Shown here: positions 13,514 through 53,974 of the stretch, in pieces
Numbering within the stretch: the stretch's first letter is position 1
Layout: each line of letters begins with the position of its first letter
Source: Candidatus Latescibacterota bacterium
GTDB lineage: Bacteria > Latescibacterota > UBA2968 > GCA-2709665
Reading direction: 5' to 3'
Assembly: GCA_965222075.1 (NCBI GenBank)
Contig: OZ244937.1
Coordinates: 3,328,001-3,392,000, forward strand
DNA length: 64,000 bases
Made by a program: the position numbers and the translations under genes
The notes under the pieces: generated by a model
What the model was told of the DNA's origin: nothing
The model's input: the letters and a program-made list of their open reading frames with translations, nothing else
Databases searched by the model: none

Positions 13514-13781
13514 CGTGTACACTCGCACCGGACTGCCGCACCGGCGCCGTCCCGTACATCAACCGACCCACCGATTCCATGGCCCTCTCCGCGCGGAAGC
13601 GTATCCCGTATCAATCCCCAGCGGCACACCCTTCAATACAAATATACCACGCCCAGAGACCGGAGTCCAGACACTCTTGAAAGGCAGTTCCTATCGGTGA
13701 GGTTGCGGATGAGGGAGGACGCCCGGGACTGAGCGACAAGGCCCCCCCACCGGCGCCCCTAACTTGCCGACTCCCCCGGTT

Positions 13782-14030
13782 TGGTGCGGGGTGAAGGGGC
13801 TTTTCCGCGCGGTTCCGTTCACCGCCTTCGCCCAGAAACGCCCCAAAGGTCCGCAGGGCAGAAGCTTCCGTTTCCACCCCAGGGGCTATTCGCGGAAAAG
13901 CAGCCCCCGCGGCGTCTGAGCGGCCTGCCTGCAGCGCGGTGCGCCGCGCCTGCCTGTGCGTCGCACGCAGACAGGCAGGCAGGCGCCCTTCTTTTTCGGC
14001 CTTTTTCTTGGGCGAGCAAGAAAAAGGCCA
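13782..14030 (+). repeat. Dispersed non-coding repeat element (MITE/REP composite), copy 1, with nested palindromic insertion
   Basis: Shares blocks GGTGCGGG.TGAAGGGGCTTTTCCGCGCGGTTCC, TTCGCGGAAAAGCAGC and GCGCCCTTCTTTTT.GGCCTTTTTCTTGGGCG.GCAAGAAAAAGGCC with 28717-28900. Confidence 0.8.
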
Positions 14031-14139
14031 AGACCAAAAGACAGTTGGACCCGGGTATCTACCGAAAGGTTATTTTCCAAGTAGCAGCTTCTTACGGCCA
14101 GCGCCAGGTTTTCAGAAAGAGGAAAAATAAAATTTCCAC

Positions 14140-14599: not shown

Positions 14600-16575
14600 A
14601 TGCGTTGATCCGTCTGGCCGAAGCGTGGTGGCCGCTCTATGCGGTGCATATTGTCGAAGTGTCGCTGTTCATTCTGCTGGTGTGGGCCGTGGACCGCTGG
14701 ATGACATTGGACACGCGATTGAGATATGTCCTCTATCTGCTGGCATTGGTGAAGGCGTTTGTGCCGCCCTTTTACGCCATTCCGCTCCCCGGGTTTTTAA
14801 CGTCTTCACCCGACGTTATGCTGAGTGAACCCGTTTATTCTGACGTGGTTTCTGAAGCTGGGGCCGTTGCTCCCGTGCAAGTTGCGACCCTTCCCCTCGC
14901 ATTTTACCTGTTCTGCCTGTGGGTGGCTTCGGCTCTGGTATGGACAGGTGTGACCTTGTGGAAAAACGCGGCCTTTCACCGCGCGCTCAATATGGCAACA
15001 CCCGTTGATCTGACGCGCAAACTGGAATCGCTGAACGAAGCGCGGGATCTGAAGGTTTATGCCAAAGCCGGTCTGCGTTCTCCGCTATTGGTCGGCCTGG
15101 TAAAACCGAGATTGTATTTGCCGACACAGTGGTCATCCTGGTCGCCCGAGCAGCTGCGGGGCGTTGTTGCACACGAATTGGCGCATCGCGACAACCGCGA
15201 TATGTACGCGCTGATTCTTCAGACCATTGCAATGGCTCTGTTTGGCCTGAACCCGCTGATCTGGCTGGTGAATCGGAAGTTGATCTACCTGCGTGAATTG
15301 CGCTGTGACGAAGCGGTGTTGCGCGAGACGAATCTGACACCTGCCGAATACGGACACCTGTTGTTGGGATTTGTCGACAGGCGACCCGCTCTGAGTGCCC
15401 TGACCCTGTATTTCAACGAGCGCGGAACCGCGCTGAAGGAACGTCTCAAGCACATACTCAATTTCAAGGAGGGCAATGTGAAATGGTCCAAACAGCAGTT
15501 GGCAATTCCCATTCTCATCGGCCTGGCGATTGTGCCCTTCTCAATTCGGGAAGCATATACACAGCCGCCCCAAATAGCCCCAAAAAGGGAGCCAATGCCT
15601 GCGTCTGGCGATGCTGACAGTAGTGAGGCCCTCGTCCTCGAACTTTTTGCGAGGGAGAATTTGGAAGGCAAAGTATTCTTGAAGCTTAAGGCCAACGCTG
15701 ACAGTAGTGAGGCCCTCGTCCTCGAACTTATTTTGGATGGCTGGGTGAGCGATGTGGATGAGAATGTTCTGAAAGAGCGGGTGGCGATATTCAAAGAGGC
15801 GGCCATTGAGGCCATATCGCAACTTCGGTTCAAACCTGCCGAACACAATGTTAAAGTTGGGCCCGTGCAGATGACGCAGGTGATTAGGTTTCCATTATCC
15901 AAACAACAGGCCGCGCCGTCTGACTCAGGCGATGCCGGCGGTGGTAAGGTCTTCGAAGTTTTCAAGGTCGAAACGAAGCCCAAACGCCTGAACTCTGTTA
16001 AGCCTGTGTATCCCGATAGCGCTCGAACAGCGGGGCTGACTGGCAAAGTGTTCTTGAGGTTTAAGGTCAACGTGGATGGGTCCGTGAGCGATGTGAAGGT
16101 TTTGAGAGGGCAGACGATATTCAAAGAGGCGGCCATAGACGCAATATCGCAATACCGGTTCAAACCTGCCGAACACAAGGGCAAAGTTGTACCCGTGTGG
16201 ATAGCACAGGTGATTAACTTTCAATTACCCAAACAACAGGCCGCGCCGTCTGACCCAGGCGATGCTGGCGATGGTAAGGTCTTCGAATTTTGGAAGGTCG
16301 ACGTCAAGCCCGTTGTCACGCATAAGGTTCGACCAGTGTATCCCGATAGCGCTCGAACAGCGGGGCTGACTGGCAAAGTGTTCTTGAGGTTTAAGGTCAA
16401 CGTGGATGGGTCGGTGAGCGACGTGAGTGTTTTGGAAGGGGAAGGGCCAGCGATATTTCAAAAGGCGGCCATTGAGGCGGTATCGCAATGGCGGTTCAAA
16501 CCTGCCCAACACAAGGGCAAAATTGTGCCCGTGTGGATGACGCTGCCGATTTACTTTCGATTACCCAGGGAATAG
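14596..16575 (+). CDS. BlaR1-type M56 peptidase fused to tandem TonB C-terminal domains
   Basis: ATGA overlap with blaI; HELAH, NPL.W, RE..CD, LKERL; repeats of PVYP..AR.AG..GKV.L.F.V..DG.V..V...A..A..Q.RF.PA. Confidence 0.9.
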   Translation: MNALIRLAEAWWPLYAVHIVEVSLFILLVWAVDRWMTLDTRLRYVLYLLALVKAFVPPFYAIPLPGFLTSSPDVMLSEPVYSDVVSEAGAVAPVQVATLPLAFYLFCLWVASALVWTGVTLWKNAAFHRALNMATPVDLTRKLESLNEARDLKVYAKAGLRSPLLVGLVKPRLYLPTQWSSWSPEQLRGVVAHELAHRDNRDMYALILQTIAMALFGLNPLIWLVNRKLIYLRELRCDEAVLRETNLTPAEYGHLLLGFVDRRPALSALTLYFNERGTALKERLKHILNFKEGNVKWSKQQLAIPILIGLAIVPFSIREAYTQPPQIAPKREPMPASGDADSSEALVLELFARENLEGKVFLKLKANADSSEALVLELILDGWVSDVDENVLKERVAIFKEAAIEAISQLRFKPAEHNVKVGPVQMTQVIRFPLSKQQAAPSDSGDAGGGKVFEVFKVETKPKRLNSVKPVYPDSARTAGLTGKVFLRFKVNVDGSVSDVKVLRGQTIFKEAAIDAISQYRFKPAEHKGKVVPVWIAQVINFQLPKQQAAPSDPGDAGDGKVFEFWKVDVKPVVTHKVRPVYPDSARTAGLTGKVFLRFKVNVDGSVSDVSVLEGEGPAIFQKAAIEAVSQWRFKPAQHKGKIVPVWMTLPIYFRLPRE

Positions 16576-28689: not shown

Positions 28690-28902
28690 TTAGAAGCCGT
28701 CTCAAAATTCCGGGTTCGGTGCGGGATGAAGGGGCTTTTCCGCGCGGTTCCCTCCAGCGCCTTCGCCTCGTGAATCCCCAAACGCTCGCAGGACACAAAT
28801 CACATATCGACCCCAAGGGCAATTCGCGGAAAAGCAGCAAGCGGCGCCGAGCGGCGCCCTTCTTTTTGGGCCTTTTTCTTGGGCGTGCAAGAAAAAGGCC
28901 AT
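28690..28902 (+). repeat. Dispersed repeat element copy 2, starting with a TIR-like TTAGAAGCCGTCTCAAAA
   Basis: Block homology to 13782-14030; lacks the nested CCTGCC palindrome. Confidence 0.8.
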
Positions 28903-29031
28903 CCTAAAGAAAACGGAATTTCTGCCGCAATTGAGTAGCCATAATACTGCGAAATCAGAACTCATGCAAGGAGTCATTGCACGTGAAGATCACCCCCATG
29001 TAAGAAGAAACCAACCGTACAGGAGGAACCC

Positions 29032-51232: not shown

Positions 51233-51383
51233 CGTATCCTCCCGATTCTTATCAAGCAAAGTAGAAAATCCCTGGAAAATTAACAAGCAAAAAATGACGG
51301 CCGTTCAAGCCTTCCGGTCCTGCGCAGGTCGTTGGTTATGGCCATTTGACAGGTCATATAGGCGTTTTCCTTCAAAAAAGTCC

Positions 51384-51499
51384 TTGACCGCAGAAGGCCT
51401 GTGGTGCATAATCAGGATAGCAGCAGGAGCGGGCAAGGGTATCGAAGAAAAAAAAGCGGGCTAAAAAGACCTTGACGTCCCCCCACTTTTTCTTATATT
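51384..51499 (+). promoter_or_regulatory. Two tandem sigma70-like promoters upstream of the radical SAM gene
   Basis: TTGACC-17-CATAAT (51384-51412, with TG extension) and TTGACG-16-TATATT (51472-51499). Confidence 0.5.
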
Positions 51500-51800
51500 T
51501 TCTATCACTTAAAACTGAAGATAAGTAATCGCGCATATATCTTCTGAGATAATGGAGCCTGCCTCAATGTCAAAGTCAGGTATTCCAACCCATTATTTTA
51601 CAGAAGGATAATTTAAAGAAGGGAGGTAAACCGGTACTTTATAATCTCAATGCCATAGCATCATTTGATCTGTATATTAGAAAATTTCGTTCTCCAAGAC
51701 GCTCCAGTGTATTGCGTGTGATAAGGGAGGGACTGTTGAGAACGGAGGGGAACCTATGTTCATTAATATTAATCAAGGATATTAAAAGGGAGGAGTTTCA

Positions 51801-53744
51801 ATGAGCTATCGAGACCGTCTAATCTCAACAGCTGCTGATATTGCCTGGAAAATCTTTCAAAGCGTCAACACACGTATCCCCGAAGGTCAGCCGTTTCAGC
51901 CTGCATGGGCTCCAGCGCCCCTGTTGAAAAGCTACGAACGCAGCAAGCCCCAGCTTGGGTTTCCCCGTGAGACAGACTCGCTGTGCCCCGACTGCGTCAA
52001 AGAGGTCAGAAATGCGGTCATCGAAGGCCGGCGCGACATCCGCGAACTGGTTGAAGGCCATCCCGGTGAGATCAAGATGCAGATGTTGGAGGAAAACGGG
52101 CAAATCGTCCTGCGCAAGACCTGTCCGATACACGGCATCTACGAAGACATTCAGTCGATCGATCCCGAATTCAGTCAGATCATTGAGAGCCGTTTCCCCG
52201 GCCGCGACTACCGCACCTTTGGCGACGAACACATCCACCACCACGGCACCTCCAGCATCAAGTACGGGCGTGGGGCGGTGCTCACCATCGATCTGACCAA
52301 CCGCTGCAACATGATGTGCAACCCCTGCTTTATGGACGCCAACCAGGTGGGGTATGTGCACGAATTGACCCTCGATGAGGTCAAGCGCATCCTGGATGCG
52401 TCCATCTCATTCAAACCCAGGCGGCAGATGTCGGTTCAGTTCTCCGGCGGTGAACCCACCATCTCCCCGCACTTCTTAGAAGCCTGCCAGTATGCCAAAG
52501 AGGTGGGATACTGGTGCGTGCAGGCGGCAACCAACGGGGTGCGGTTTGCCCAGGATCCCGAATTCGCGTTTGCCGCCAAGGAGGCCGGCCTGGACATGGC
52601 CTACTTGCAGTTCGACGGGGTGACCAACACGGCCAACCAGCACCGCCACATCTCCAACCTCTTCGACGCCAAGCTCCTGGCCATGGAAAGCCTCGCCAGG
52701 GCCGACATCGACATCACACCGGTCACTACGGTGTTAAACACCATCAACAACGACCAGGTGGGTCCCATCCTCCAGTTCTGCATCGACAACAGCGACAAGG
52801 TCGGCTCCATCTCCTTCCAGCCGATCTCGTTTACCGGCCGCGACGAAGACATCAGCAATGAGCTTCGCCACCAGCAGCGCTACACCATCTCCCACCTCGC
52901 CCACGACCTGGAGGAATGGTCAGGAGGGAAGCTGCAGGCCCACCGCGACTGGTATCCGCTGGGTGCGGGCATCCTGTTTACCACCCTGGCCGACCACCTG
53001 CGCGGTCCGGACATCCAGTTTGGGGGTCAGACCTGTTCCTGCCACCCCAACTGCGGCTCTGCCCTCCACATTATGGTCAACGAAAAGACGAAGGCGTGGG
53101 CGGCCATCACTGAGTTCTTCGATCAGGACCAGTTTATGAAAGACATTGAAGTGATGACCGACACTTCGCGCGACCCCAAGCTGATCAAAGTGCAGGCGGC
53201 TCTCTCCCTGCTGCGCAACTTCAATTTGAAGAAGGCACCCCCGGGGTTCAAGCTGGAAGACCTGGGGCGCATCTTCGACCGCAGAGTGGGCGGCTCCATA
53301 AGCGGGGGTGAGCGCCCGGAAGACAGGGAGTGGCGGATTATGTGGGTGGGCGGCATGTGGTTCCAGGACCTGTGGACCTACGACTTTCGCCGCACCGAGA
53401 TGTGTGTGATCCCCTATGCCACCCAGGATGGCGAGATCTCCTTTTGCGCCTACAACACCGGCATCGGCTGGCGTCAGATCATCGAGAACATACACATGAC
53501 CGCCACCACGGCCGAATGGTTCAAGACGGTTGGCCGGCATTCCATATACGCGGGTGACCGGGACATGCCCCTGCCGGATGCGCAGCACACATTGAGGGTG
53601 CGGGAGAACGAGAACGGCGAACTGGAGCTGCCCGTGGTCGATGAGCAGTCCGGCAACAGCAGCTGTGGCTGCTCCTCTACCGACACACAGGAGGAGATTA
53701 AGAAGATTGTCTCCGCGCCGGTAGAAGAGGGCACCATCGCGTAG
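51801..53744 (+). CDS. Radical SAM enzyme, Tes/GDGT-MAS (MJ0619/MptM-annotated) family homolog
   Basis: SLCPDC...KTCPIHG N-terminal metal site; TNRCNMMCNPC; QFSGGEPT; ATNG; YLQFDG; FQPISFTGR; HPNCG; M.FQD...D..R...C.I.YAT.....FC.YN. Confidence 0.85.
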   Translation: MSYRDRLISTAADIAWKIFQSVNTRIPEGQPFQPAWAPAPLLKSYERSKPQLGFPRETDSLCPDCVKEVRNAVIEGRRDIRELVEGHPGEIKMQMLEENGQIVLRKTCPIHGIYEDIQSIDPEFSQIIESRFPGRDYRTFGDEHIHHHGTSSIKYGRGAVLTIDLTNRCNMMCNPCFMDANQVGYVHELTLDEVKRILDASISFKPRRQMSVQFSGGEPTISPHFLEACQYAKEVGYWCVQAATNGVRFAQDPEFAFAAKEAGLDMAYLQFDGVTNTANQHRHISNLFDAKLLAMESLARADIDITPVTTVLNTINNDQVGPILQFCIDNSDKVGSISFQPISFTGRDEDISNELRHQQRYTISHLAHDLEEWSGGKLQAHRDWYPLGAGILFTTLADHLRGPDIQFGGQTCSCHPNCGSALHIMVNEKTKAWAAITEFFDQDQFMKDIEVMTDTSRDPKLIKVQAALSLLRNFNLKKAPPGFKLEDLGRIFDRRVGGSISGGERPEDREWRIMWVGGMWFQDLWTYDFRRTEMCVIPYATQDGEISFCAYNTGIGWRQIIENIHMTATTAEWFKTVGRHSIYAGDRDMPLPDAQHTLRVRENENGELELPVVDEQSGNSSCGCSSTDTQEEIKKIVSAPVEEGTIA

Positions 53745-53767
53745 CCGAACCGGGGCCGCCGAGATTT

Positions 53768-53806
53768 AGCATCCGGGTGTGTGAAACCATCCGGATGCTT
53801 TTTTTT
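53768..53806 (+). terminator. Intrinsic terminator
   Basis: AGCATCCGG/CCGGATGCT stem followed by a T8 run. Confidence 0.85.
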
Positions 53807-53886
53807 CCCTCTTCTCTTTCTACTTTTACATAACCTCTAAAAAGGGCGTTGTCAAGCCAAAACCGGGCGCTGCTTCCAGCTTGCCA

Positions 53887-53915
53887 TTGACAAATTACCT
53901 GCAATTATGTATCAT
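53887..53915 (+). promoter_or_regulatory. Sigma70 promoter of the tig operon
   Basis: TTGACA - 17 bp - TATCAT. Confidence 0.75.
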
Positions 53916-53974
53916 TCCATTTCAGGTCAGCAAAAGCGTCGTATATGTTTTAGCCGAAAGGAACGCCGGGGTTG

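Follow-up and report, generated by a model that had tools for sequence, protein, structure and literature searches.

A Tes-like radical S-adenosylmethionine protein in Latescibacterota as a candidate enzyme of membrane-spanning lipid synthesis

The archaeal enzyme Tes or GDGT-MAS (M. jannaschii MJ0619; structures 7TOL and 7TOM; NCBIfam model NF045702) couples lipid tails by C-C bond formation to make glycerol dialkyl glycerol tetraethers (GDGTs); its residues Met439, a labile ligand of the C-terminal cluster, and Tyr459, which faces the substrate, are conserved across 1000 archaeal homologues, and of its clusters the N-terminal one lies on the surface and the C-terminal one at the reaction centre (Lloyd et al. 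2022, PMC9433317; this and all other papers and preprints are cited here from parts of their text). Bacterial homologues have been described before: 456 of them were reported, with a proposed role in the synthesis of branched GDGTs (brGDGTs) (Zeng et al. 2022, PMC8941075), two from S. usitatus were proposed for diether condensation (Halamka et al. 2022, PMC10087280), and such homologues are found in organisms without known biphytanyl chains (Lloyd et al. 2022, PMC9433317). A second bacterial system, the Mss of Thermotoga and Thermoanaerobacter, is likewise an enzyme of the radical S-adenosylmethionine (SAM) type, for which the same cluster-assisted Csp3-Csp3 coupling is proposed (PMC13459092), and both Mss and Ger have been validated (Sahonero-Canavesi et al. 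2022, PMC13159169). Mss is only remotely related to Tes (PMC13159169); it would serve the same end, and its activity was demonstrated in E. coli under anoxic conditions, whereas the bacterial Tes-like clade is known from sequence. The subject of this study is a gene within a stretch of 64,000 nucleotides, hereafter the window, from a Candidatus Latescibacterota bacterium (assembly GCA_965222075.1, contig OZ244937.1, positions 3,328,001 to 3,392,000 of the forward strand). The gene lies at 51801..53744 on the + strand, is a single open reading frame (ORF) of 647 residues plus stop with an ATG start, and encodes a Tes-like radical SAM protein for which tail-to-tail lipid coupling is the best-supported reading, at a probability of roughly one half.

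A preliminary description, made from the letters of the window, had called the protein a homologue of the Tes/GDGT-MAS family, and this assignment holds. All the motifs that it listed stand in the translation, namely C62-x2-C65...C108-x2-H111, C169-x3-C173-x2-C176, Y268-LQFDG273, F339-QPISFTGR347, H415-PN-C418-G419, M519-WFQD523, C535-VIPYAT541 and F548-CAYN552, and matches far above chance were obtained with Pfam (Radical_SAM, PF04055, 59.5 bits, residues 165-326; Zn_ribbon_HMPTM, PF23545, 39.2 bits, residues 54-117), with NCBIfam, where Tes NF045702 is the best model (303.4 bits, E 2.6e-90), and with the sequence of GDGT-MAS 7TOL in the PDB (E 3e-59, residues 92-563). No other solved structure matches along the chain as GDGT-MAS (7TOL/7TOM) does; SkfB and PqqE come next, at E 5e-7 and worse. 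As to the specificity of the Tes model, at E <= 1e-30 it finds matches in three of 14 control genomes, and all three are GDGT-producing archaea. The AlphaFold2 model, built on a 79-row alignment, has a mean predicted local distance difference test (pLDDT) score of 87.1 and a predicted template modelling (TM) score of 0.89, and its confidence is low solely in the degenerate cluster loop described below (blocks at 141-160, means 58-62) and in the tail 609-647 (< 50). Comparison of the predicted structure with GDGT-MAS, a check that the preliminary description had called for, gave a whole-chain fold match at TM 0.88: in a Foldseek search against the PDB, 7TOM and 7TOL stand at the top (E 7.5e-40, target-normalised TM 0.88-0.89, root-mean-square deviation 3.1, 536 columns), and the next fold is that of MoaA (TM 0.49, radical SAM core only).

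The residues were mapped by residue-by-residue alignment to 7TOL, with the ligands taken from PMC9433317 and with the chain numbering of 7TOL running 20 ahead of that of the paper. Conservation was counted over 200 sequences, made up of the query, the 120 database proteins nearest to it and the translations of 79 named loci, the named loci being taken from the best 80 of at least 600 stretches (at least 595 of them encoding relatives), with one genome per species and taxa assigned by record title. The rubredoxin-like metal site domain (residues 56-117; 51966..52151, + strand; PF23545) carries C62, C65, C108 and H111, the counterparts of C9X2C12...C33X2H36 in GDGT-MAS, and these four ligands are present in 200 of the 200 sequences. 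The radical SAM core (residues 159-361; 52275..52883, + strand; PF04055) shares with GDGT-MAS both the CX3CX2C motif, formed by C169, C173 and C176, and the FQPxSFTGR SAM loop, here FQPISFTGR, in which Q340, S343 and R347 align with Gln268, Ser271 and Arg275; all six residues are invariant (200/200). Alignment also defines a C-terminal auxiliary-cluster/lipid-pocket domain (residues 362-564; 52884..53492, + strand) with C412, C414, H415, C418, M519, C535, Y539 and C549, where M519 takes the position of Met439 and Y539 that of Tyr459. Both are found in every sequence (200/200), as are C414, H415, C418, C535 and C549, and C412 is found in 196 of 200; the alignment suggests which of the cysteines may ligate the C-terminal cluster.

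Given that the residues of GDGT-MAS chemistry are kept in all 200 clade members, tail-to-tail coupling appears to be the best reading, and the gene may reasonably be taken, as the preliminary description took it, for a candidate for membrane-spanning lipids. In the mechanism that is suggested, SAM would be cleaved reductively, as shown for GDGT-MAS, and the 5'-deoxyadenosyl radical would abstract a hydrogen from a lipid tail, at its terminal carbon, while the tail lies in a hydrophobic tunnel. The substrate radical would then be held on a sulfide of the C-terminal cluster until a second tail, made a radical by means of a second SAM, attacks the parked radical, and the resulting C-C bond would yield a membrane-spanning chain. 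We infer the lipid substrate, the coupling and the product alike; in this host, whose genome has a FAR-AGPS cluster and no Ger/PlsA hallmark, the substrates would likely be acyl or 1-O-alkyl glycerolipids.

Nevertheless, the protein differs from GDGT-MAS in several respects. The identity between the two is 27-33%, and where GDGT-MAS has C73, C77 and C80 the query has an HxHG-x-S loop (residues 141-158; 52221..52274, + strand), which was defined by alignment to GDGT-MAS. Here D142-EHIHHHG149 replaces the archaeal CPxxCGxCxxH motif, just as the preliminary description had it, and H144, H148, S151 and K154 stand opposite the [Fe4S4]N ligands C73, C77 and C80 and a conserved His; the N-terminal cluster therefore cannot form as in GDGT-MAS. 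Within the loop H148 and S151 are both found in 200 of the 200 sequences and H146 in 197. The query is also longer, by a 55-residue N-terminal extension, an insertion of ~30 residues that in the alignment separates the two ligand pairs of the rubredoxin-like domain, and a C-terminal extension of ~80 residues. The N-terminal extension (residues 1-55; 51801..51965, + strand), which the alignment shows to be absent from GDGT-MAS, includes an amphipathic helix at residues 5-22 (in the model, helix 3-23 at pLDDT 78-92, with a hydrophobic moment of 0.61), and no transmembrane stretch was found in the whole protein. At the other end a clade-specific folded extension (residues 565-608; 53493..53624, + strand), recognised in the alignments, has a conserved WFxxxGRHxIYAG block at pLDDT 84-93, and it is followed by a low-confidence tail (residues 609-647; 53625..53741, + strand; pLDDT < 50) with the CGC at 622-624. 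Both extensions and the C622-G-C624 noted in the preliminary description are thus present, but the CGC is neither conserved (C622 in 97/200, C624 in 81/200) nor confidently folded. A pairing of this C-terminal CGC(H) with the HxH as a substitute metal site was considered and rejected as a general feature, given the low conservation, the imperfect co-occurrence and the pLDDT below 50. The preliminary description had further supposed a variant enzyme, and this did not survive comparison: the lost CPxxCGxC and both extensions are common to 200 of 200 clade members, acidobacterial homologues included, so the supposed variant is the usual form in bacteria, and the acidobacterial homologues have it as well.

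This form belongs to a clade of its own. In none of the 120 closest relatives, which are 62-95% identical to the query, is the radical SAM motif preceded, 25 residues upstream, by a second CX3CX2C, and this second motif is present in 19 of 39 longer, more distant representatives. With NF045702 six shorter representatives score 474-645 bits and four long-clade representatives 220-414 bits, and the clades were labelled by these NCBIfam scores and by the named loci. A maximum-likelihood tree of 52 rows (the query, 25 chosen of 79 named loci and 26 database proteins; quick search, midpoint root), in which the canonical rows are database representatives without names, separates 33 long-form from 19 canonical rows with Shimodaira-Hasegawa-like approximate likelihood-ratio test (SH-aLRT) support of 100 on both sides, and the query falls in the long-form clade. 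There it groups with two Latescibacterota loci (SH-aLRT 99), then with a protein labelled Calditrichota, and then with Gemmatimonadales, Myxococcales and some Acidobacteriota. The concern, voiced in the preliminary description, that the protein might cluster outside the Tes clade is therefore half borne out: it lies in a sister clade of canonical Tes (SH-aLRT 100), and the fold and motifs of the Tes family are kept. As judged from these alignments, the gene is a member of a large and already noticed bacterial sister clade of canonical Tes and not a novel variant; its host, moreover, is a bacterium, and the group is one without known biphytanyl lipids.

The best 80 named loci comprise 63 from Acidobacteriota, seven from Myxococcota (including Polyangium fumosum DSM 14668, of the Polyangia), four from Pseudomonadota, two from Latescibacterota, one each from Gemmatimonadota, Actinomycetota and Vulcanimicrobiota, and one unassigned. 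The acidobacterial loci among them are from Acidobacteriaceae, Bryobacterales (including a metagenome-assembled genome (MAG) of Ca. Solibacter usitatus), Blastocatellia/Pyrinomonadaceae, Chloracidobacterium and Vicinamibacterales. We take Acidobacteriaceae, Bryobacterales, Blastocatellia and Vicinamibacterales to be the acidobacterial subdivisions 1, 3, 4 and 6. Subdivisions 1, 3, 4 and 6 make iso-diabolic acid (PMC13159169), and in five of five genomes examined that carry homologues of this clade the long-form type was the only one present, at 310-346 bits and often in two copies. In a wider sample of 301 acidobacterial genomes, three of them unpublished, 178 match at E <= 1e-30; by our own count ~141 of the 301 have strong matches (best E <= 1e-130), and 37 of the 178 have weak matches only. 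The query is 50-59% identical to the homologues, described as putative Tes and proposed to act in making brGDGTs and iso-diabolic acid, of Solibacter, Acidobacteriaceae, Bryobacteraceae, Blastocatellia and Vicinamibacterales, with which it shares both the clade and the architecture of a single CX3CX2C; unlike them it is found in Latescibacterota, in two identical copies, with a longer tail after the CGC and without an lpx neighbourhood, and some acidobacteria also or only carry canonical-type Tes.

That the organism is not acidobacterial, as the preliminary description had surmised, is borne out by the two closest of the best 80 named loci, which are Candidatus Latescibacterota MAGs with 80-81% identity and the same tig-clpP-clpX order; at these loci ClpX is 79% and Tig 61% identical, and the comparison speaks for selection on the Tes-like gene. 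Within the family of the window organism 18 of 21 genomes have a match, and the orthologues are 80-90% identical across it. With few matches elsewhere in the phylum, the gene is a family-level and not a phylum-level trait.

The surroundings of the gene bear on which lipids might be involved. In a survey of the best 80 named loci, with ORFs clustered up to 8 kb on each side, the commonest neighbours are LpxD-like proteins (14/80), a protein without known role (12/80), LpxB (11/80), LptD (7/80) and LpxA (7/80), and this lipid A/lipopolysaccharide neighbourhood is seen in Pyrinomonadaceae-type loci (L018, L020, L026, L027, L035, L058 and other acidobacterial loci). Judged by gene order, the lpx/lptD neighbourhoods hint that in one acidobacterial lineage the gene is tied to membrane lipids. 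A search of the Latescibacterota genome for two neighbour families of acidobacteria, made without a positive control, found neither. These neighbours, seen in 7-14 of the best 80 loci, raise the possibility that the protein is a lipid-modifying radical SAM enzyme that does not join the tails of two glycerolipids and would instead make a single lipid macrocyclic, modify chains by cross-linking or in other ways, in the manner of Gms and Grs, or use other hydrophobic substrates, for instance the acyl chains of lipid A or polyprenyl lipids. The fold and the pocket-forming domain match GDGT-MAS, as this would also require, and GDGT-MAS itself makes macrocyclic archaeol in addition, the Tes paralogue MA_1114 giving only traces of it (PMC8941075). 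The clade stands apart from canonical Tes and has lost one cluster, and it is carried by Polyangia and Gemmatimonadota too. We know of no report of membrane-spanning lipids from either group, although no search was made. On the other hand, the reaction-centre residues of GDGT-MAS (Met439, Tyr459 and the cluster cysteines) are all kept, the taxonomic centre of the clade is formed by acidobacterial groups known for iso-diabolic acid, and the lpx association is limited to a minority of loci. Such other lipid chemistry is accordingly regarded as a possibility, albeit a rather unlikely one.

It is also conceivable that the substrate is not a lipid but a peptide or a cofactor, as suggested by the (seleno)protein family TrsS and by the old annotation of MJ0619 as a pterin methylase. 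TrsS (NF045646) is the second-best NCBIfam model, with 203.9 bits over residues 91-553; some JGI records call close homologues '7,8-dihydro-6-hydroxymethylpterin dimethyltransferase', and a lipid operon is lacking. However, the TrsS score is far below the cut-off of 490 bits and below the Tes score, no precursor peptide or selenium-related genes flank either copy of the gene, and the whole-chain fold match extends to the C-terminal lipid-pocket domain; in addition, the pterin-methylase role of MJ0619 was not corroborated and is unlikely from its structure (PMC9433317). A non-lipid substrate is therefore considered improbable.

Against the coupling of lipid tails, a number of points have to be set. 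First, the Tes score of 303 bits does not reach the curated cut-off of 450 bits, the query sits on the long-form side of the tree, one of the four metal centres of GDGT-MAS is missing, and hydrophobic lipid tunnels are predicted solely by way of the fold match. Under the rule of Garcia et al. that a true bacterial Tes branches inside the archaeal part of the tree (10.1101/2023.10.20.563219), a protein in a sister clade would fall outside the true Tes homologues. Second, there is no conserved operon with lipid genes, since no neighbour family exceeds 14 of the 80 loci and that one probably represents one lineage, and within the phylum the gene is patchy, with matches in 27 of 168 Latescibacterota genomes. 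Third, according to the parts drawn on of a Black Sea study (PMC11868695), a preprint (10.64898/2026.06.23.733905) and PMC8941075, no bacterial Tes homologue has been experimentally confirmed; the sole validated bacterial membrane-spanning lipid synthase is Mss, from an unrelated clade (PMC13159169, PMC13459092), and under stringent criteria Tes homologues were found in three of 14 acidobacteria that produce iso-diabolic acid (PMC13159169). Finally, the RNA-library contigs described below are no proof of transcription, given that DNA is possible in such libraries.

The remainder of the genome, of 97.6% completeness and with a contamination estimate of 5.24%, was searched for ether-lipid genes, as the preliminary description had advised, and the outcome is divided: AGPS was found, and PF09989, the hallmark of Ger/PlsA, did not turn up, the control being matched in Thermotoga maritima (the domain architecture of Ger is given in PMC13159169). 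AGPS is the third gene of an ether-lipid-type cluster of four (FAR, a 673-residue protein, AGPS and a short-chain dehydrogenase) at C1:4592416-4598972 (= L099:8416-14972). The first gene encodes a FAR-type fatty acyl reductase with NAD_binding_4 and Sterile domains, the second a 673-residue protein without family and with a faint acyltransferase match (E 0.072), the third an AGPS that matches mammalian AGPS 4BBY at E 1.7e-147, and the fourth the short-chain dehydrogenase. Homologues of AGPS are present class-wide in 124 of 168 genomes of the phylum and in 21 of 21 of the family of the window organism.

A GGGPS-family gene (C1:2381441-2382184 = L098:9441-10184, - strand), which stands alone between alaS and the gene of a PEP-utilising enzyme, passes both TIGR01769 (197 bits against a cut-off of 161.55) and NF003198, and one of four UbiA proteins (C1:4809898-4810995 = L108:1171-2268) is DGGGPS-like, archaeal DGGGPS models being its best matches, under the cut-off. 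Given a GGGPS past the NCBI cut-offs and a DGGGPS-like UbiA, isoprenoid ether-lipid tails are a possible substrate, and the enzyme could couple such tails, in which case a bacterium would have archaeal-style tetraether or macrocyclic lipids. As for glycerol-1-phosphate dehydrogenase, none of five Fe-ADH_2 matches reaches the model at E <= 1e-20, and one protein of 392 residues stays without assignment. GGGPS is found in 159 of 168 genomes of the phylum and is thus uninformative on the 27 of 168 that carry the Tes-like gene; its co-occurrence was for that reason rejected as a clue to the substrate. A milder version, more likely than the isoprenoid one, is that the enzyme couples the tails of 1-O-alkyl glycerolipids derived through AGPS. 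Taken together, the isoprenoid and the milder version are given a slender chance.

The gene looks monocistronic, with its own terminator and just before tig, as had been proposed. An intrinsic terminator follows the stop codon (53768..53806, + strand), consisting of a 12-pair stem (hairpin 53768-53799) and then a T-run, and tig follows at 53972 with its own promoter-like site (11/12 in a consensus scan); the downstream order is tig-clpP-clpX, and the genes upstream of the Tes-like gene are on the opposite strand. A candidate promoter of TTGACG, a 16-base spacer and TATATT lies at 51472..51499 on the + strand (10/12; the consensus scan alone is no proof of function), and the same kind of scan gave a weaker promoter-like site at 51650-51678 (+ strand). 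The ribosome-binding site GGGAGGAG (51788..51795, + strand) has the ATG 5 bases on and lies within the duplicated block described next. A riboswitch or structured leader was rejected for lack of any Rfam match at E <= 1 over leader and gene (51250-53900) and in view of an unremarkable leader folding z-score of 0.81.

The genome, as assembled, contains the gene a second time. The block 51775..53779 of the window (+ strand; copy A) recurs 1.08 Mb away at C1:2300999-2303003 (= L006:12999-15003; copy B), and over its 2005 bases there is a single mismatch, at 53767, past the stop codon, so that the coding DNA is identical (1944/1944). The edges of the block are sharp, 26 bases upstream of the gene and, downstream, reaching to the first terminator arm. 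A 114-base relic at C1:2313257-2313370 (= L007:10257-10370), 10 kb beyond copy B, retains the last codons and the first terminator arm at 93.9% identity, with a frame of 44 residues. At copy B no transposase or flanking repeat was seen, and upstream of it on the same strand (L006:6712-12938) are a patatin-Omp85 fusion, a B12-binding radical SAM protein, which is BchE/HpnJ/HpnR-like and below all cut-offs, and a leucine-rich-repeat-dockerin protein, an arrangement not seen in the best 80 named loci. Among the 168 genomes of the phylum examined there is no second case of two full copies, the second match in one of them (G009) being split in two pieces.

Identical coding DNA in two copies, with one mismatch in 2005 bases, together with the contamination estimate, might suggest that the second copy is an assembly artefact or that the gene is inert in this organism. 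This is very unlikely for several reasons: the frame is intact, the catalytic residues are all kept and the family orthologues are 80-90% identical; the GC content of the gene (0.592) matches that of the genome (0.593); the two copies have unique flanks, both within one 5.36-Mb contig; the diverged relic represents an older copying event; and contigs from RNA libraries cover the gene and the unique upstream flank of copy A. The stretch was found in 20 public runs; four come from a single study and are metatranscriptome libraries with the label sponge metagenome, and the contigs of these libraries cover 51533-51941, which includes that flank, and 52176-53691, with 0-9 differences. In all four runs contigs start at exactly 51533, ~34 bases downstream of the promoter-like -10 and ~268 upstream of the ATG. 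This start, shared by four runs of one study, and the gaps at ~51942-52032 and over the terminator were rejected as a signal.

Elsewhere in the window, intergenic repeats of ~150-350 bases without an ORF of at least 150 residues lie at 13743-14097 and 28713-28911 and have dozens of copies genome-wide at 80-95% identity. An internal direct repeat at 15785-16567 (15785-16231 against 16115-16567, 83% identity, offset 330 bases) may represent tandem repeats within a gene.

What is new here, namely the Latescibacterota host, the identical second copy with the relic 3' end, the FAR-AGPS context and the coverage by sponge RNA libraries, amounts to modest additions to a known clade. In sponges, C30-C31 membrane-spanning monoethers have been assigned to Acidobacteriota and Poribacteria only, with tes found only in Acidobacteriota MAGs and with matches to elbD, agps and ger in Latescibacterota (preprint 10.64898/2026.06.23.733905). 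A search of the literature, in the parts covered, found ether-lipid genes reported in Latescibacterota and no assignment of tes to that phylum, and supplementary tables may list more. The wider interest of the clade lies in brGDGTs and iso-diabolic-acid lipids, on which temperature and pH proxies in wide use are based: for their tail-joining enzyme in aerobic bacteria, the long-form Tes-like clade is the current candidate. That the whole clade has lost the surface [4Fe-4S] cluster is a clean biochemical difference from GDGT-MAS. With a Latescibacterota lineage added to the carriers, the candidate becomes sharper and the set of suspected producers wider; and if the enzyme does couple the tails of AGPS-derived 1-O-alkyl glycerolipids, Latescibacterota would be a non-acidobacterial, non-Mss source of the sponge C30-C31 membrane-spanning monoethers.

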